Source: an uncultured Gammaproteobacteria bacterium (GTDB lineage: Bacteria > Pseudomonadota > Gammaproteobacteria > Magnimaribacterales > D2472). From it: DNA of 64,000 nucleotides. Below, one piece after another: positions 3,461 through 53,976 of this stretch. Position 1 is the stretch's first letter. Each line of letters starts with the position of its first letter. The stretch lies in contig CAZFYG010000004.1 in the NCBI GenBank assembly GCA_964523375.1, positions 13,652 to 77,651 on the forward strand, written 5' to 3'. Made by a program: the position numbers and the translations under genes. The notes under the pieces are model-generated. The model was not told the DNA's origin. It ran no database searches and saw only the letters and a list, made by a program, of their open reading frames with translations.

Positions 3461-4469
3461 AGTAGGTGGCGCAATAAGAGATTCTTTATTAGGCAAAGAG
3501 CCTAAAGATAGCGACTGGGTAGTTGTTGGAAGCTCTCCAGAAGAAATGATTGCTAGGGGTTTTAAACCAATTGGTAAAGATTTTCCTGTATTTCTGCACC
3601 CCAAAACCAATGAAGAATATGCTCTAGCTAGAACTGAGAAAAAAACTGGTTATGGTTATAAGGGTTTTAACTTCTTTTTTGGAAAAGAAGTTACATTAGA
3701 GCAGGATTTATCTAGGAGAGATTTAACAATAAACGCTATTGCTCAGGACGAGCATGGAAATATTATTGACCCATTTAATGGAAGAGGCGATATAGCCAAA
3801 AAAGTTTTTAGACATGTATCAGATGCTTTTATAGAAGATCCTTTAAGATCATTGCGCCTAGCAAGGTTTCATTCCTATGAGCATTTAGAACAATTTACTA
3901 TCTTTAAAGATACAAAAGAAATATTGAAAAAAATTGCAAATTCAGGTGAAATTGAAAAACTGTCCCCTGATCGATTTTGGTCAGAGATTAATAAAGGTTT
4001 GTTATCTAAAAATTCAACAGCTTTTTTCAATCAAATGATTGAGTTAGACATATGTAAATATTTTATGCCTAATCTTTCAAACCCAAACTGTGGCACCTCA
4101 GATGCTCCAGATACTAAGTGGGCAGAACTTCAGAACAAAAATGATTTTCCACTTAGCAATATTCTCCCTATTCCAAATAATTTTACCCACGCAGTTAATC
4201 TGCTGGAGTTGCTAAAAAAAATTACTAAAAATACTAAAATTGATGATTTAAATAAAATAATTCAAGAAATAAATGTGTCTAGAAACAGGGAATTGATTAA
4301 TAAACTATTAGTTGTCGAGTGTTTGGCAGAGTCTAACAATTTAATTAAAAAAATTATGAGTGCTGTTCATGAGATAGACTTTTCTGTATTAAGGGATATT
4401 GAACCTAGAAAGATACAAGAGAAGAAAGATACTATGTACAATGAAATTCTTACGAGGTTCTATGAGTAA
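3447..4469 (+). CDS. cca: tRNA CCA-adding nucleotidyltransferase, short form without recognisable HD domain
   Basis: N-terminus is colinear with E. coli Cca (KVGGAIRDSLLG, DSDWVVVG, RRDLTINAIA, EDPLRSLRLARF). At 340 aa, the C-terminal third has no HD/HDxGK motif. Confidence 0.8.
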   Translation: MKIYKVGGAIRDSLLGKEPKDSDWVVVGSSPEEMIARGFKPIGKDFPVFLHPKTNEEYALARTEKKTGYGYKGFNFFFGKEVTLEQDLSRRDLTINAIAQDEHGNIIDPFNGRGDIAKKVFRHVSDAFIEDPLRSLRLARFHSYEHLEQFTIFKDTKEILKKIANSGEIEKLSPDRFWSEINKGLLSKNSTAFFNQMIELDICKYFMPNLSNPNCGTSDAPDTKWAELQNKNDFPLSNILPIPNNFTHAVNLLELLKKITKNTKIDDLNKIIQEINVSRNRELINKLLVVECLAESNNLIKKIMSAVHEIDFSVLRDIEPRKIQEKKDTMYNEILTRFYE

Positions 4470-5190
4470 AACAATTTTAATAACAGGTGCTGCAAAAAGA
4501 ATAGGTAAAGAAATTGCCCTAACTTTTTCTAATATGGGCTGGAATGTAATTATTCACTATAATTCTTCTAAACATGATGCTGAAAAATTGCAAAATGTTA
4601 TAAATAAAGTAAGCCCAAATTCTGCAAAAATAATTCAAGCTAATTTAGATATTGATGAGGATATAGATAGATTAATTATAAATAGTAAGTCTATGTTTAA
4701 TTCCTTAGATGTTTTGGTAAATAATGCATCGGCTTTCTACCCTACCCCAATTAACAATGCTTCTTTAAATGACTGGGATAAACTTGTTGGCTCGAACCTA
4801 AAAGGGCCATTATTTTTAATTAAGGGTCTTCATGAAATAATAGCTAACAATAATGGAAGTATTATTAATATAACTGATACAAATTTAACTAAAGGCGTTG
4901 CAAATTTCTCTGTATACGCAGCTGCAAAAGGTGGATTAGAATCAATTACAAAGAGTTTAGCAAGAGAGCTTGCTCCAAATATAAATGTGAACGCCATAGC
5001 TCCTGGAGCCATGCTTGAACCGCCTGATGTTATATGGAGTGATGAGAAAAAAGCCAGCGTTATAGAAAACATCCCACTTAAGCGAATGGGATCTGAAAAA
5101 GATATAGCAAATGCTGTGAAGTTTTTAGTAAAAGCTAAGTATATTACAGGGCAAACCATTAAAGTTGATGGAGGGAGGTCATTAATATGA
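4462..5190 (+). CDS. SDR-family pteridine/dihydromonapterin reductase-like protein (FolM/PTR1-like)
   Basis: ITGAAKRIG dinucleotide motif, NNASAFYPTP and catalytic YAAAKGG. I chose the MSKTIL start at 4462, which overlaps the cca stop (ATGAGTAA), over the ORF-track start at 4399. Lies in a folK/folB neighbourhood. Confidence 0.7.
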   Translation: MSKTILITGAAKRIGKEIALTFSNMGWNVIIHYNSSKHDAEKLQNVINKVSPNSAKIIQANLDIDEDIDRLIINSKSMFNSLDVLVNNASAFYPTPINNASLNDWDKLVGSNLKGPLFLIKGLHEIIANNNGSIINITDTNLTKGVANFSVYAAAKGGLESITKSLARELAPNINVNAIAPGAMLEPPDVIWSDEKKASVIENIPLKRMGSEKDIANAVKFLVKAKYITGQTIKVDGGRSLI

Positions 5191-6248
5191 CACATGATAT
5201 AGAAAATTATGACGAAATTTTTTCAGGCACCAAGCAGGTTGCAGCAAATTTAAAAATTGATTCGGAGAGGCTACAGCCATGGATTGATGCCCACGTTGAG
5301 GGAGCTGGAAGAATTAAAAGAATAGAGCAATTTAAAGGCGGTCAATCGAATCCAACCTATAAAATAACTACAGATACTAAAAGTTTAGTATTGAGAAGAA
5401 AGCCTCCAGGAAAACTACTCCCATCAGCCCATGCTGTTGATAGAGAATATAAGGTTATTTCAGCATTGTATGAAACAGATGTTCCTGTTCCTAAAACATA
5501 TGGCCTTTGTGAAGATGAAAGTGTTGCTGGAACTGCCTTTTTTGTAATGGACTTTCTTGATGGGGATATTTATTGGAATCCAATGCTTCCTTCTTTAAAA
5601 AAGGAGGATAGAATAAAAATTTATTCCAGTAAAAATAAAACACTTGCAGCACTGCATAGCGTTGATTATAAAAAAGTTGGCCTTGGTGATTATGGTAAGC
5701 CAGGAAATTATGTTTCTAGGCAGATTGCAAGATGGTCCCGTCAATACAAGGCATCAGAAACAGATAATATTGATGCTATGAATAATCTTATTAAGTGGTT
5801 GCCAGAGAATATCCCAAATGATGATGAGACTTCTATAGTGCATGGGGATTTTAGACTTGATAATATGATTTATAAAAATAATGATGTAATTGGCGTACTG
5901 GACTGGGAGCTATCTACCCTTGGGCATCCTGTAGCTGATTTTAGTTATCATTGTTTAACATGGAGAACGGAGCCAATGTACTCTGATTACCCCAAATTGA
6001 AAGAGTTGGGAATACCCAATGAAATGGAATATCGTGATATGTACTCAGAGGCAACTGGAAAAGATTTGTCCTCAAACTGGGAATTCTATATGGCTTTTAA
6101 TATTTTTAAGGTTGCTGCTATCTGTCAGGGAATACTGGGCAGGGTCAGGGACGGAACAGCTGCCAGTAAACATGCTGAAGATAGGGGCATGAAGGTTTAT
6201 CCTTTATCAGAAGGTGCTTGGTCAATTGTTGAAAAGAATTTTAAATGA
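5187..6248 (+). CDS. Phosphotransferase (APH/choline-kinase fold) family protein, substrate unknown
   Basis: Brenner motif VHGDFRLDNMI followed by GVLDWELS. ATGA overlap with the upstream SDR gene. Confidence 0.7.
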   Translation: MTHDIENYDEIFSGTKQVAANLKIDSERLQPWIDAHVEGAGRIKRIEQFKGGQSNPTYKITTDTKSLVLRRKPPGKLLPSAHAVDREYKVISALYETDVPVPKTYGLCEDESVAGTAFFVMDFLDGDIYWNPMLPSLKKEDRIKIYSSKNKTLAALHSVDYKKVGLGDYGKPGNYVSRQIARWSRQYKASETDNIDAMNNLIKWLPENIPNDDETSIVHGDFRLDNMIYKNNDVIGVLDWELSTLGHPVADFSYHCLTWRTEPMYSDYPKLKELGIPNEMEYRDMYSEATGKDLSSNWEFYMAFNIFKVAAICQGILGRVRDGTAASKHAEDRGMKVYPLSEGAWSIVEKNFK

Positions 6249-20080: not shown

Positions 20081-20250
20081 TACATCTCTATCATATCAAA
20101 ATCTTCCTTACCAACGCCACACTCAGGACATAACCAATCTTCTGGCACATCTTCCCATTTTGTTCCCGCCTCTATTCCATCTTCAGGCCAACCTAGTGCC
20201 TCATCATATATAAGCCCACATACAATGCATTCCCATTTTTTTAATTCCAT
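20080..20250 (-). CDS. Rubredoxin (56 aa; below the 60-aa cut-off of the ORF track)
   Basis: Hand translation of the minus strand gives [56 protein letters not shown]. It carries both CxxCG knuckles (CIVCG, CPECG) and the conserved aromatic residues. The TAA stop shares 1 nt with the symporter ATG (TAATG). Confidence 0.85.
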
Positions 20251-20318
20251 AATTAATATCTATTCCAAATGATGATAAAAAGTTCGGAGTATAATATCAG
20301 ATTTACTATGATTACTTA

Positions 20319-29853: not shown

Positions 29854-29929
29854 GCCCAGATAGCTCAGTCGGTAGAGCAAAGGATTGAAAATCCTTGTGT
29901 CGGTGGTTCGATCCCACCTCTGGGCACCA
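29854..29929 (+). tRNA. tRNA-Phe (anticodon GAA), CCA encoded
   Basis: Hand-folded cloverleaf: acceptor GCCCAGA/TCTGGGC, D stem GCTC/GAGC, anticodon stem AAGGA/TCCTT with loop TTGAAAA, T stem GGTGG/CCACC with loop TTCGATC, and 3' ACCA. Confidence 0.95.
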
Positions 29930-29930
29930 T

Positions 29931-30134
29931 TTATTTAAACCACTTGTAAGGCTTATCCCCAGCTACTTTAAAATAGATAGCCATATTAGTTATGTGAGTT
30001 ATTATAAGGGTTAAGGAAATACCTAAAGCCCAATAAATATTTCTAAAGTTTTGATGGGCATCAACTAAAAATAATAAAGCTACTACTGATAATGTGAATA
30101 CTCCTATTGGTAAAAACGCATTTAAGTTTTTCAT
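29931..30134 (-). CDS. Small (67 aa) two-helix membrane protein, unknown function
   Basis: Two hydrophobic segments (FLPIGVFTLSVVALLFLV; WALGISLTLIITHITNMAIYF). The start forms an ATGA overlap with the ferredoxin stop, which suggests co-translation. No family recognised. Confidence 0.4.
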   Translation of the reverse strand: MKNLNAFLPIGVFTLSVVALLFLVDAHQNFRNIYWALGISLTLIITHITNMAIYFKVAGDKPYKWFK

Positions 30135-30454
30135 TTTTTCTCCTTTTTTTGATTTAAATCTATCTCTACTTCTATATCTGAAATTAACTCACTTTGGCAA
30201 GCCAATATAAAGCCCGCATCTAATTCTTCTTTTTTCAAGGTATAGCTAAAGTCGATATTAGGTTTTATCTTCCCTGAAATAATTTTACATTTGCATGTGC
30301 CGCAGCTACCCACCTTACATCTATGCGGCCAATCCACACCCTCTGATAAAGCTGAAGAGAGCAGAGTTTTGGCGGGTAAAACATCGAAGCCTATGTTGTT
30401 GCTGAGGAGTTCTGCTCTCCTGGGTACTTTCTTCTTTCTAAAAATACTAAGCAT
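30131..30454 (-). CDS. Plant-type [2Fe-2S] ferredoxin, stand-alone domain (107 aa)
   Basis: Cys ligand pattern C-x4-C-x2-C-x31-C (HRCKVGSCGTCKCKI ... ILACQ). The start lies 1 nt after the alkB-like stop. Confidence 0.8.
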   Translation of the reverse strand: MLSIFRKKKVPRRAELLSNNIGFDVLPAKTLLSSALSEGVDWPHRCKVGSCGTCKCKIISGKIKPNIDFSYTLKKEELDAGFILACQSELISDIEVEIDLNQKKEKK

Positions 30455-30455
30455 G

Positions 30456-31607
30456 TTAAGAGGCTATTGGTGCTAAAGAGGAAGTATCCTCATTAAATTT
30501 ATTCGCAATAGATCTTTCCTCTTCGGTCGCATAATTCTTATCCCAATTGTCTAGATGTTTTTGAACAAATTTTTTGAATAATGGTGGATATAAAGTTAAT
30601 ACAAAAAGAGTGAAATAACCTATTCCATAATTAGGCCCCCCTACATCATCGAGCTCCCAAAAATAAGTCTCACCTCTTACATGATGGTCGCACTGTCTTC
30701 CGATCTCAATAAAAAACCAGCTGGTAAAAACTGAATCATTATCCCATGAGTGCCTGTGCTCAACAGGCCCATCTTTTCTTATCAAACCATAGTGGCCCAT
30801 GAAATTTAAAGCTTCTAAGAGGAAGTTTGATAAAATCCAAACTGTTGCCAATGCAAGCAGTCCAATTACTCCTCCAGACCAAACAAATAGAAATATAGAA
30901 GGTAGGCTGTATAAATATCCAAGCAACCATCTGTTGTCTTTGTTTATAAAACTCTTACCTTGATTTTTAAGCTTCTTAGCTTCCATATCAAATGAAAATT
31001 TTGATTGGCCAGCATGAGAAAGCCAAGTATGTAAGTACACATTTCTTCCCCTCGGTGCTGTAGCTGGATCATCTTCGTGACCTAGGTCTAAGTGGTGATT
31101 GTATACATGAGCGTAAGTGAAATGTGACGCCCCACTTAAAGCCATAATTAATCTTGAAACAAAAAATCCCTCTTTTTTATTGTGGGATAGTTCATGCCCA
31201 TAAATAATTCCAAGCCCAGCCCATAAACCCGAAGATATAATGGCACCTATGAGATTAATGCCTGATATTCCATTTTGATATTCAATTGGTCCTAGAGATA
31301 AATTCTGCAAGATTGCTCCAGAAGTATATTGGTATAGTCTCCAAGCTAAAAAAACCTGTATGGTAACGAAGACTGGCAACATCACATACATTACAAGATA
31401 TTGAAAAAACTTAATACCATAAGAGTTTCCATTATTGTCCACCTCAGCCTTGAGATGAATATCTTTCGTTAAAGTATCTATTATGGTGTAAAGGCCAAAT
31501 AGTATTACTCCTGTCCAGGCATAAGTGCTACCAAGAAATATCCCAAAAATGGTTATTATTGATGACACTGGAACAATTAGGTACCTTGCATTTATATAAA
31601 ACTTCAT
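30456..31607 (-). CDS. AlkB-family integral-membrane di-iron hydroxylase (alkane 1-monooxygenase/XylM-like)
   Basis: His boxes HELSH and HVYNHH, the AlkB-specific NFMGHYGL motif, HRHSWD, and a third box reading RQCDHH. AAGGAG Shine-Dalgarno 8 nt upstream. Confidence 0.8.
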   Translation of the reverse strand: MKFYINARYLIVPVSSIITIFGIFLGSTYAWTGVILFGLYTIIDTLTKDIHLKAEVDNNGNSYGIKFFQYLVMYVMLPVFVTIQVFLAWRLYQYTSGAILQNLSLGPIEYQNGISGINLIGAIISSGLWAGLGIIYGHELSHNKKEGFFVSRLIMALSGASHFTYAHVYNHHLDLGHEDDPATAPRGRNVYLHTWLSHAGQSKFSFDMEAKKLKNQGKSFINKDNRWLLGYLYSLPSIFLFVWSGGVIGLLALATVWILSNFLLEALNFMGHYGLIRKDGPVEHRHSWDNDSVFTSWFFIEIGRQCDHHVRGETYFWELDDVGGPNYGIGYFTLFVLTLYPPLFKKFVQKHLDNWDKNYATEEERSIANKFNEDTSSLAPIAS

Positions 31608-31655
31608 AAGAAAATCTCCTTCTTAATAATCAATAAATCCTAGGGAATACATCTT

Positions 31656-31705
31656 CCGTTTTAGCACTTTCTTTTAAATCGCGGCAATAGGATCAAATTA
31701 CGATT
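31656..31705. repeat. Direct repeat copy 1 (50 bp, identical to copy 2)
   Basis: The sequence ccgttttagcactttcttttaaatcgcggcaataggatcaaattacgatt was read directly. The identical string recurs 107 bp downstream. Confidence 0.95.
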
Positions 31706-31762
31706 AAGCAAAACATAACAAACAAAATCAGTTTGCAGTGTTAAATCCATGGAATGGTAGTA

Positions 31763-31812
31763 CCGTTTTAGCACTTTCTTTTAAATCGCGGCAATAGGAT
31801 CAAATTACGATT
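31763..31812. repeat. Direct repeat copy 2 (50 bp, identical to copy 1)
   Basis: Same 50-mer as 31656-31705. Short flanking similarity (aaatcc..ggaat) lies just upstream of both copies. Confidence 0.95.
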
Positions 31813-31891
31813 TGAGTATTAAACTTGATAATAATATTTTTGTAAATACTAATACTTGAAAAAATATTAATTAATTTGTAAGTTACTTAAC

Positions 31892-32845
31892 ATGACCACT
31901 AAATTACAGCTCTTTCCTCACATAGAACCTTTTAATACAGGATTTTTAAATTGCTCAGAACATAATATTTATTACGAAGAGTGTGGTAACAAAAATGGAA
32001 AGCCGGTTGTATTTCTTCATGGTGGGCCGGGTGGAGGCGGAAGTGAAGATGTTAGGCGTTTTTTTAATCCAGAACATTACAGAATTATTATTTTTGATCA
32101 AAGGGGTTGTGGGCGGAGCACTCCTCATGGATGCCTAACCAATAATACAACATGGGATTTAGTATCTGACATAAATAAACTAAGGCAAAAGCTTGGAATT
32201 TCTAAATGGATGGTTTTTGGGGGATCATGGGGCTCAACATTAGCTTTGGCTTACTCTCAGTCACACCCCTCTTCAGTAAGCGAGATTGTAATTAGAGGAA
32301 TATTTATGCTCCAGCAGCACGAGCTAGATTGGTTCTATCAAGAAGGTGCAAGCAAGCTTTTTCCTGATGAATGGAAAAAATTTATTGGGGTCATTGAGGA
32401 AAGAAAAAGAGGCAATCTTATGAAAGCATATAATGAAATTTTTAATGGCTCAGATGAAAAGGCTAAACTAAGTGCTGCAGTGGCTTGGTCTAGATGGGAG
32501 GCTTCGACTAGCAAGCTTGTAAAAAATGATAGTTTAATGGATGAATTTTCTGATCCTCACTTTGCCCTTGCGTTTGCGCTAATTGAAAATCATTACTTTA
32601 TGAATAAAGGATTTTTAGAACATGAGAAGCAACTATTAGATGGTATTGAGAAAATAAGAGATATTCCAGCAGTTATAGTTCAGGGTAGATATGATGTTGT
32701 TTGCCCAATGGAAACTGCATATGAGGTTTCAAAAAGATGGCCTGAAGCTTCATTTGAAATCGCGCAGAATTCAGGACATTCTGCGTTTGAAAAAGAAATA
32801 GTTCATCTTCTAGTGTCTGCTACAAATAAATTTGCACACAATTAA
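31892..32845 (+). CDS. pip: Proline iminopeptidase
   Basis: FLHGGPGGG oxyanion region, nucleophile elbow GGSWGSTLALAY and C-terminal GHSAFE. Confidence 0.85.
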   Translation: MTTKLQLFPHIEPFNTGFLNCSEHNIYYEECGNKNGKPVVFLHGGPGGGGSEDVRRFFNPEHYRIIIFDQRGCGRSTPHGCLTNNTTWDLVSDINKLRQKLGISKWMVFGGSWGSTLALAYSQSHPSSVSEIVIRGIFMLQQHELDWFYQEGASKLFPDEWKKFIGVIEERKRGNLMKAYNEIFNGSDEKAKLSAAVAWSRWEASTSKLVKNDSLMDEFSDPHFALAFALIENHYFMNKGFLEHEKQLLDGIEKIRDIPAVIVQGRYDVVCPMETAYEVSKRWPEASFEIAQNSGHSAFEKEIVHLLVSATNKFAHN

Positions 32846-53415: not shown

Positions 53416-53976
53416 ATGAAAATTTCTACAAGCCAATTTAAAAATGGAACAAAACTTTTATTAGATGGAGTTCCTTGCTCGATCGTTAACCATGAGTTCC
53501 ACAAGCCTGGTAAAGGGCAAGCTGTAATGAGAGTTAAATATAAAAATCTTATAACTGGCAACACAAATGATAAAACATTTAAATCTGGAGAATCTGTTGA
53601 AACTGCAGATATTGATCATAAAGAGATGGAGTTTTTATACTCTGATGGTAATAGCTGGCATTTTATGGATTCTATTACATATGAGCAGATAGAGATTGGT
53701 GCTGAAGTCATGAAAGATGCAAAGAAGTGGCTTGTAGGTCAAGAAATATGCGAGGTTGTTACTTGGGATGATTTACCTATTTTGGTTGAGCCACCTATAT
53801 TTGTTGAGCTCACTATATCCAGATCAGAGCCTGGTGTTAAAGGGGATACTGTTTCGGGAGCAACAAAGCCCGCAGAGCTTGAAACTGGTGTAATTGTTAA
53901 TGTTCCTTTATTTGTTAATGAGGGCGAAAAGATCAAGGTCGACACCAGGACTGAGGAATACTCTAGCCGAGCATAG
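53416..53976 (+). CDS. efp: Elongation factor P
   Basis: FKNGTKLLLDGVPCSIVNHEFHKPGKGQAVMRVKYKNL, with the modified-Lys loop KPGKG. Confidence 0.95.
   Translation: MKISTSQFKNGTKLLLDGVPCSIVNHEFHKPGKGQAVMRVKYKNLITGNTNDKTFKSGESVETADIDHKEMEFLYSDGNSWHFMDSITYEQIEIGAEVMKDAKKWLVGQEICEVVTWDDLPILVEPPIFVELTISRSEPGVKGDTVSGATKPAELETGVIVNVPLFVNEGEKIKVDTRTEEYSSRA

Follow-up and report, generated by a model that had tools for sequence, protein, structure and literature searches.

A perfect intergenic repeat upstream of an AlkB-like oxygenase cassette very probably represents tandem SAM-II-type riboswitch aptamers

The repeat and its aptamer fold

We analysed a stretch of 64,000 nucleotides from an uncultured Gammaproteobacteria bacterium (contig CAZFYG010000004.1, positions 13,652 to 77,651 of the forward strand), referred to here as the window. 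Its largest non-coding gap (31608-31891, 284 bp) is flanked by a minus-strand open reading frame (ORF) at 30456-31607, the first gene of a three-gene oxygenase operon, and by a plus-strand ORF at 31892-32845 encoding prolyl aminopeptidase (pip). Two 50-mers in this gap (31656-31705 and 31763-31812) attracted attention in a preliminary description as identical copies with a period of 107 bp. Exact comparison bore this out, with a start-to-start spacing of 107 nt. In this study, we found that the repeat very probably consists of tandem riboswitch aptamers of the S-adenosylmethionine (SAM)-II type, read from the minus strand. The prolyl aminopeptidase gene is unrelated to the element.

The window was about 96% coding by a crude gene cover, and the runner-up gap measured 238 nt (20081-20318) by the same cover; Rfam at gathering thresholds gave no match in it. 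Two seemingly larger gaps were artefacts of the gene cover, being occupied by real-looking ORFs (EF-P-like, 53416-53976, and SDR-like, 4399-5190). Once these were filled, the claim that the 284-bp gap is the largest held. With up to three mismatches tolerated, the 50-mer matched twice in the window and not at all in 100 shuffles. A short extra similarity (aaatcc..ggaat) had also been noticed next to each copy, and it is real: the 22-23 nt segment beside each 50-mer, AUUCC..GGAUUU on the minus strand, was 61% identical between the units, compared with about 48% for the outer flanks.

A standard Rfam scan of the window returned a tRNA as its sole match. In a permissive scan of 31400-32100, both units aligned on the minus strand with SAM_alpha (RF00521) over positions 1-79 of 79. 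The downstream unit (unit 2, 31714-31640) scored 30.3 bits (E = 7.2e-5) and the upstream unit (unit 1, 31821-31747) scored 27.0 bits (E = 5.7e-4). The curated gathering cut-off of RF00521 is 36 bits, and a standard scan therefore leaves these aptamers unannotated. An orthologous copy in locus L025 reached 37.2 bits, above the cut-off.

The minus-strand reading of the 50-mer is AAUCGUAAUUUGAUCCUAUUGCCGCGAUUUAAAAGAAAGUGCUAAAACGG, and each copy was found to be a full SAM-II-class aptamer core, from the 5' strand of helix P1 through GCUAAAACGG. The elements were mapped onto the SAM-II/SAM-V architecture after Huang and Lilley (PMC6061858) as follows.

P1 5' strand: AAUCGU
Triplex third strand: AAUUUG
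Loop link: AUCC(UA)
P2 descending strand: UUGC
P1 3' strand: GCGAUU
A-rich joiner: UAAAAGAAAGU
P2 ascending strand: GC-U-AAA, including the bulged U paired with the SAM adenine
Start of the P2a strand: AC-GG

Because the elements of SAM-II map onto the 50-mer, the perfect repeat coincides with the aptamer. Our first pseudoknot assignment, with loop UUUG and CUAAA as a Watson-Crick helix, was wrong, since PMC6061858 gives P2 as UUGC with GC-U-AA and the U-run as the third strand of the triplex. A CRISPR-like mini-array (50-nt repeat, 57-nt "spacer", plus-strand start GTTTTAG) was also considered and was dropped after the minus-strand Rfam match and the single-copy orthologues were found.

The operon that follows the repeat on the minus strand contains three genes.

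30456-31607, minus strand: gene 1, a 383-amino-acid membrane di-iron oxygenase of the FA_desaturase/AlkB family (PF00487, E = 3.6e-22)
30131-30454, minus strand: gene 2, a 107-amino-acid 2Fe-2S ferredoxin (PF00111, E = 8.4e-15)
29931-30134, minus strand: gene 3, a 67-amino-acid protein with two hydrophobic segments

The comparison set comprised 55 genomic loci encoding oxygenases 67-95% identical, from SAR86, Porticoccaceae, Kangiella, Woeseiaceae, several Alphaproteobacteria, Acidimicrobiia, Marinimicrobia and a Flavobacterium metagenome-assembled genome (MAG), that is, from at least five phyla. The three-gene cassette was kept in essentially all of them. In most of the loci, whose G+C content ranged from 29 to 57%, a core of about 47 nt lay about 100 nt upstream of the first gene. 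This core was 93% identical across phyla to the window copy, compared with 69% for the first 600 nt of the gene. A custom covariance model (R1) scored unit 1 at 87.3 bits and unit 2 at 92.8 bits. A covariance model built from these loci matched just the two sites in the window, and elsewhere only cassette-proximal sites (55 loci, 479 kb). The element is therefore locus-specific and not dispersed.

Covariation analysis of the orthologous regions, a check that the preliminary description had proposed, revealed compensatory changes in five of the six P1 pairs, and 97.4% of the P1 cells were paired. Pair 6-33 was AU in 47 sequences, GC in 9 and UA in 1, and was never unpaired. In L054 the whole P1 stem was swapped (GCACC/GGUGC). 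Overall, 95.8% of cells were paired, compared with 25-54% when partners were slid by 1-3 columns, and the covariation score was matched by none of 500 shuffles. The P2 pseudoknot (UUGC with GC-U-AA) was paired in 99.1% of cells, with invariant columns. The SAM-pocket nucleotides, namely UUU of the triplex strand, UUG(C) and GCUAAA(A), were invariant in 55 sequences; their roles (U-rich third strand, U:A.U triples and bulged U) were assigned from the SAM-V/SAM-II structures (PMC6061858). For P2a, both a proximal partner (UCC:GGA, 3 bp, 96.5% paired) and a distal partner (GAUCC:GGAUY, 5 bp, 96.8% paired) were found, and both carry the same U-A to C-G swap in Acidimicrobiia. From the pocket sequence, both window aptamers are predicted to bind SAM.

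The element was then compared with the known families. It shares with SAM-II (RF00521; Corbino 2005, structure by Gilbert 2008, as cited in PMC6061858) the H-type pseudoknot, the motifs (G/A)AUUUG and UUGC, the A-rich joiner, GCUAAA with its bulged U, a P2a strand 2 nt after GCUAAA and an end-to-end Rfam alignment. It differs in its AU-rich P1, in a loop 4 nt shorter than the consensus, in a sequence almost frozen across phyla, and in a conserved hairpin (P3) and second loop-complementary element (GGAUY) after the aptamer. The cargo is an AlkB-like cassette in place of metA, metX, metY or metZ, and the hosts are mostly outside the Alphaproteobacteria. With SAM-V (RF01826; Pelagibacter metY, bhmT and mmuM) it has in common the ligand pocket, the marine setting and, probably, translational control. 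In SAM-V, however, P3 comes after the P1 3' strand and ahead of the P2 ascending strand, and the Shine-Dalgarno (SD) sequence directly follows P2 (PMC6061858), whereas here the joiner is an 11-nt A-rich segment free of hairpins, the extra hairpin comes after P2, and the SD lies about 35 nt past GCUAAAA. Given a hairpin placed beyond P2 and an SD set apart from it, SAM-V identity was rejected.

Leader layout and history of the tandem arrangement

The features of the leader in the window are listed below.

31846-31818, minus strand: sigma-70-type promoter, -35 TTTACA (31846-31841), 17-nt spacer, -10 TTTAAT (31823-31818)
31816-31741, minus strand: unit 1, the upstream aptamer, with the perfect-repeat core (31812-31763) ending in GCUAAAACGG, and after the core a degenerate hairpin (UUCC 31754-31751, GGAUU 31748-31744)
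31740-31710, minus strand: inter-aptamer spacer, with hairpin GCAAAC-UGAUUUU-GUUUGU (31736-31718) and U-rich tail UAUGUUUU (31717-31710)
31709-31633, minus strand: unit 2, the downstream aptamer, with core 31705-31656 and GCUAAAA at 31665-31659
31657-31644, minus strand: unit 2 P3 hairpin, GGAA (31657-31654) with UUCC (31647-31644), predicted -3.5 kcal/mol
31640-31636, minus strand: unit 2 distal element, GGAUU
31621-31605, minus strand: ribosome-binding region, SD AAGGAG (31621-31616), spacer AUUUUCUU, AUG (31607-31605)

The promoter in the window was read by eye; the automated scan rejects it, as it demands A at position 2 of the -10 box. The predicted transcript start is close to the first base of P1 in the upstream aptamer. 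The arrangement TTTACA-17-TTTAAT ended 7 nt before the P1 TCG of the upstream aptamer in all tandem loci from genome assemblies. The same promoter was present in many single-aptamer lineages, and 23 of 50 loci scored at least 9 of 12. No comparable promoter was found in the inter-aptamer spacer. The lone conserved promoter lies upstream of the first aptamer, and both aptamers therefore appear to belong to one leader and to be co-transcribed. Among its possibilities, the preliminary description had listed a small RNA or leader element present in two copies, which was right in kind, as the repeat corresponds to two riboswitch aptamers in the 5' leader of the hydroxylase operon. Its statement that no convincing hairpin or promoter lies inside the unit was correct for the strand and span examined. 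It does not hold for the minus strand, and both features were missed because the element reads on that strand and the promoter sits outside the repeat unit.

A P3 hairpin followed GCUAAAAC in every gene-proximal copy. The pairs at the base of P3 covary (GGAA/UUCC, GGGA/UCCC, GGAG/CUCC, CGGA/UCCG). P3 also differs in length among loci and has a long insertion in Kangiella (L010, L015 and L051, about 3925-3965), where a further stem-loop of some 25 nt (GGAAAAUAAAUAAUUC..GAAUUCAUAUUUCC) is present; the position thus tolerates insertions. After P3 comes a near-invariant GGAUY, replaced by GGGC or AGGC in Acidimicrobiia, where the loop link GAUCC reads GCCUG. The SD motif GGAG was conserved in all loci and is complementary to the P3 3' strand UUCC over 4 bp in the window and over as many as 8-14 bp in Porticoccaceae and Acidimicrobiia. 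A helix of -9 to -17 kcal/mol between the SD and the P3 3' strand together with GGAUY is predicted in 16 loci. Porticoccaceae, Woeseiaceae and Acidimicrobiia have such long helices, as in the pairing of CCUCCUAG with CUAGGAGG. In the window, the A-rich joiner AAGAAAGU can form 8 bp with the SD-AUG spacer, but this pairing showed no covariation across loci and was rejected as a low-complexity coincidence. A 9-codon upstream ORF on the minus strand (31652-31623; AUG UAU UCC CUA GGA UUU AUU GAU UAU UAA) has its start codon within the unit 2 P3 loop and its stop codon just ahead of the SD. It was rejected as a general feature, being confined to the tandem loci of types A, A' and A'' described below.

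The stretch after GCUAAAACGG of unit 1, which includes a second small hairpin, was predicted to fold at -9.1 kcal/mol by RNAfold. A hairpin was present at the spacer position in every tandem locus, with differing sequences. For unit 1, the spacer hairpin is a candidate for a weak terminator or for an insulating element. An antiterminator formed by the 3' strand of the unit 1 aptamer with the spacer hairpin was rejected, as it comprises only 4 bp (AGUG:CACU) and the variants in L001 are non-compensatory.

We next considered how the two copies arose. Two aptamers were present in 6 of the 55 genome loci, all of them from the closest SAR86 relatives, which form a single subclade, and most lineages carried one copy. 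A tandem-specific pattern recovered 13 further tandem loci from metagenomes. Twenty tandem loci were typed by comparing the upstream with the downstream core.

Type A (window, L057, L058, L064/L065, L067): cores identical
Type A' (L001, L063): cores identical, both sharing a U-to-A change at a freely variable site
Type A'' (L002, L056): one core difference
Type B (L005, L059): cores identical, different spacer
Type C (L003, L004, L052, L060-L062, L066, L068): 6-8 core differences, among them a compensatory exchange of A-U for G-C in P1

Types A and C have the spacer motif GAUUU(U)GUUUGU in common. This argues for one old duplication, with cores later homogenised in some lineages. The preliminary description had offered recent duplication or constraint as the cause of the perfect identity. 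Constraint is the main part of the answer, as the core is far better conserved than the adjacent coding DNA, and the duplication looks old, not recent. As judged from these sequences, most of the "perfect" identity is explained by very strong purifying selection alone, and a small number of independent events among the types suggest that gene conversion probably helped.

Poiata (2009) is reportedly the source for "bi-mechanism" riboswitches with SAM-II and SAM-V in tandem. Tandem SAM-II doublets with mixed terminator and ribosome-binding-site platforms are documented in 44 examples (PMC9481103). Like the SAM-II/SAM-V and SAM-II/SAM-II tandem systems described as "bi-mechanism" and "pseudo-cooperative" in that study, the present leader has two aptamers for the same ligand, a hairpin and U-rich stretch after the upstream unit and a downstream unit near the ribosome-binding site, and its hosts are marine, streamlined and reliant on reduced sulfur. 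Unlike the SAM-II/SAM-V tandems, it contains sequence-identical aptamers in place of two classes, and its upstream terminator is weak at best. In addition, its SD lies about 35 nt past the aptamer and not inside P2a as in the known tandems.

SAM regulation and the direction of the switch

The cassette was also found behind other SAM riboswitches, which take the place of the SAM-II-type motif in some lineages. A SAM-I/IV aptamer above the Rfam cut-off precedes it in L029, L033 and L054. In L029, the aptamer is followed by a textbook terminator (stem and T9). In L054, a SAM-II-like aptamer (35.2 bits) is followed by a -16 kcal/mol terminator with U8, then by SAM-I/IV, and then by the cassette. 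In all eight Acidimicrobiia loci and two Kangiella loci (10 loci), a neighbouring metY carries a SAM-I or SAM-I/IV riboswitch of its own. In Porticoccaceae and L054, the cassette is followed by an outer-membrane channel of the OmpW family. With the fold class, conservation and position of the aptamers established, these loci also establish the cassette as a member of the SAM regulon.

Several further observations were made at these loci. In the SAR86-like genome of L054, the SAM-II-like and SAM-I/IV aptamers occupy 3754-3953, and a second SAM-I/IV lies at 5777-5868 before the OmpW-family gene, which gives three SAM riboswitches in about 2 kb; the heterologous tandem is of a kind listed by Sherlock et al. 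2022 (PMC9481103). In the Acidimicrobiia loci (L028, L034, L035, L040, L043, L046, L047 and L055, about 3840-3890), the aptamer comes directly after a GC-rich terminator-like hairpin behind metY, and no promoter-like sequence was seen between the two. Read-through from the SAM-I/IV-controlled metY may thus place two SAM riboswitch classes in series there. In L033 (3694-3752), a SAM-V-like pseudoknot was seen by eye between the SAM-I/IV aptamer and a small membrane ORF (GGGU..GAUUUAU..UUGCC..ACCC, hairpin UGAUACGUAUCA, then GGCUAAAAC abutting the SD AUGGAG). It was not used as evidence, as Rfam reports none there at E values up to 10.

The tandem riboswitch is most likely an OFF switch. Terminator-type platforms before the orthologous cassettes are the standard OFF design, which points to repression of the cassette by SAM. 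The unchanged pocket, the alternative SAM riboswitch classes and the metY neighbours with SAM riboswitches likewise argue for SAM as the ligand and for repression. Both the OFF direction and the two expression-platform mechanisms given here are inferred. Both aptamers would lie in one minus-strand 5' leader transcribed from the promoter at 31846-31818, ahead of the three-gene operon. Each would fold as an H-type pseudoknot, with P1 formed by AAUCGU and GCGAUU, AAUUUG in the P2 groove and P2 formed by UUGC with GC-U-AA, and the bulged U and the U:A.U triples would make up the SAM pocket. When SAM is plentiful, both aptamers would be bound and the operon turned down; when SAM is scarce, owing to a lack of methionine or reduced sulfur, the operon would be expressed.

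For the gene-proximal unit, a translational platform is most likely. The GGA just after GCUAAAAC could pair either with the loop UCC, forming a short SAM-stabilised P2a, or with UUCC, forming P3. Without SAM, P3 and the distal pairing would retain the pyrimidine strand, leaving the SD free. With SAM, the short proximal P2a would form, as in translational SAM-II/SAM-V switches, and P3 would open; the UUCC freed from it, with GGAUU beside it, would pair with the SD region. Unit 1 would act as a second, independent SAM checkpoint, perhaps via the weak hairpin and U-rich tract, and should sharpen or deepen repression either way.

Several points weigh against a tandem SAM-II-type OFF switch. Both window copies fall below the RF00521 gathering score (30.3 and 27.0 against 36 bits), and none of the regulated genes is a known methionine or SAM gene. 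The P2 pairs never vary, and they fit the fold while giving it no covariation support. Pairs were counted on an alignment fitted to a model in which P1 and P3 were already present, which favours those helices. For unit 1, the hairpin and U-rich tail fail the terminator scan, and in type-C tandems the spacer hairpin has no U-tract. For unit 2, the anti-SD:SD pairing is only about 4 bp in the window clade, and predicted SD accessibility was not lowered in a simulated bound state (0.38 free and 0.65 bound). In the lineages with long SD helices, nearest-neighbour energies prefer the SD helix even without ligand, which makes an ON switch thermodynamically possible. Removal of the aptamer through the proximal GGA left mean predicted SD accessibility unchanged (0.13 and 0.13) and did not discriminate OFF from ON.

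An ON switch with the same aptamers and ligand is the strongest alternative, although we consider it unlikely. Here SAM would stabilise P3 and GAUCC:GGAUY and hold the anti-SD, so that the SD is freed, and the cassette would serve a SAM-consuming or SAM-surplus function. The distal pairing, with its 5 bp paired at 96.8%, is kept even where the long SD sequestor is absent, and in Porticoccaceae and Acidimicrobiia the SD helix (-9 to -17 kcal/mol) is the predicted main form of the ligand-free leader, so that ligand would be needed to open it. However, all characterised SAM-II and SAM-V switches are, to our knowledge, OFF switches. In addition, a riboswitch with a terminator, the classic OFF design, precedes the orthologous cassettes in L029 and L054, adjacency to the SAM-repressed metY fits repression, and the GGA 2 nt after GCUAAA has exactly the canonical SAM-II P2a spacing (Rfam alignment; PMC6061858).

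A variant of the SAM-II fold with a changed ligand, such as S-adenosylhomocysteine, methylthioadenosine, a sulfonium such as dimethylsulfoniopropionate or the product of the oxygenase, appears improbable. It would account for the sub-threshold Rfam scores and for a cargo atypical of SAM-II, and the subfamily does show a near-invariant sequence peculiar to itself, together with an additional 3' hairpin. Changes of specificity among riboswitch variants have precedents. Nevertheless, none of the pocket nucleotides identified in the SAM-II/SAM-V structures varies, and elsewhere the same cassette lies behind SAM-I/IV aptamers (50-64 bits, above threshold), an unrelated fold with the same ligand.

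The possibility that the preliminary description listed first was a duplicated operator or activator array, a pair of DNA sites through which a transcription factor would control the oxygenase operon or the divergent pip. Identical sites 107 bp apart (about 10 helical turns) in a divergent promoter region would suit such a site, but the evidence makes it highly improbable. The element is present as a single copy in most lineages, its changes are compensatory in an RNA helix of one strand, and it keeps a fixed distance to the cassette start whatever lies upstream (metY, terminator or tRNA). Moreover, it lies downstream of the conserved promoter, within the transcript, and the 50-mer has no dyad symmetry.

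Finally, a short dispersed repeat (resembling repetitive extragenic palindromes or miniature inverted-repeat transposable elements) or a functionless, neutral recent duplication, which the perfect identity of two AT-rich 50-mers had brought to mind, is already refuted by copy number and conservation, since the covariance model finds two copies in the window and, in about 415 kb of related loci, no sites other than those upstream of the cassette, the core retains 93% identity across phyla as against 69% for coding DNA, and the diverged upstream copy of type C is structurally intact with its compensatory P1 change.

The cassette and its possible function

The best solved relative of the gene 1 product was AlkB (8SBB, E = 9.8e-25), and the histidine boxes HELSH, HVYNHH, GHYG and DHH were invariant. 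Homologues are abundant in marine metagenomes, where source names are "alkane 1-monooxygenase" or "fatty acid desaturase". Gene 2 comes after gene 1 in nearly all 55 loci, and its ferredoxin is presumed to be the electron donor of the oxygenase. Gene 3 gave no Pfam or NCBIfam match, but a homologue is in the cassette of nearly all loci, placed first in L029, L030 and L033. The whole arrangement is carried by Kangiella sp. HZ709, which appears to be an isolate. In L053 (4001-5072), the oxygenase gene of a MAG appears disrupted, as only a 426-nt ORF (4362-4787) matches, and this is either a pseudogene or an assembly error. A weak model match inside that gene is spurious; the upstream aptamer is intact. 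In the window, a tRNA-Phe (GAA) on the plus strand (29854-29929) lies directly past the end of the minus-strand operon, at the place of the OmpW-family gene in other lineages.

The cassette resembles the AlkB/AlkG alkane 1-monooxygenase (8SBB, 8F6T) in family and histidine boxes, and in the OmpW-type protein that follows it in some lineages. It differs in its 2Fe-2S ferredoxin partner, which replaces rubredoxin, in the extra conserved 67-amino-acid membrane protein, in having no alkane-catabolic neighbours, and in having SAM riboswitches instead of an AlkS-type alkane sensor. AlkL of the alk system belongs to the OmpW-type family as well.

Searches of the literature on the cassette together with SAM riboswitches, SAR86, dimethylsulfide (DMS) and AlkB-like enzymes found, among the papers covered, no prior description and none linking the cassette to SAM control. 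A 2025 preprint counts alkB genes of marine bacteria, among them those of SAR86, Porticoccaceae and Actinobacteriota, as markers of alkane consumption. SAR86 is without sulfate uptake and assimilatory sulfate reduction (PMC3358033). This inability, together with the three kinds of SAM riboswitch in at least five phyla, the metY adjacency in two unrelated lineages, Acidimicrobiia and Kangiella, and the OmpW channel, led us to suggest tentatively that the cassette could be a hitherto overlooked SAM-repressed organosulfur-scavenging module, widespread among marine bacterioplankton, and not one of alkane catabolism, a possibility that we still regard as doubtful. A reasonable reading of these neighbourhoods is that the oxygenase would oxidise a small hydrophobic methyl-sulfur compound to supply methanethiol or sulfide to MetY, and that MetY would turn these into methionine or homocysteine. 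The simplest guess for the substrate is DMS, with DMS + O2 + 2e- giving methanethiol and formaldehyde. If this is true, many marine "alkB" markers of the hydrocarbon cycle are misassigned, and a missing gene for bacterial consumption of DMS or methyl-sulfur compounds would be identified.

The RNA element itself is tidy but ordinary. It is an unannotated tandem riboswitch of SAM-II type, of modest novelty, in a streamlined marine genome, and such genomes are known to lean on riboswitches. The case shows how a "perfect repeat" in AT-rich DNA can arise via purifying selection on an aptamer, probably with gene conversion. Its larger value lies in the pointer that it gives to the function of the cargo, as a riboswitch is a built-in functional annotation. 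An abundant, highly conserved and horizontally spread "alkane 1-monooxygenase" cassette is assigned to the SAM/methionine regulon in SAR86, Porticoccaceae, marine Acidimicrobiia, Alphaproteobacteria and other groups. This cautions against the use of its genes as markers of alkane degradation in ocean metagenomics. It also leads to a testable hypothesis, for which Kangiella sp. HZ709 is a potential experimental carrier, namely that the cassette may serve the acquisition of reduced sulfur in organisms unable to use sulfate.

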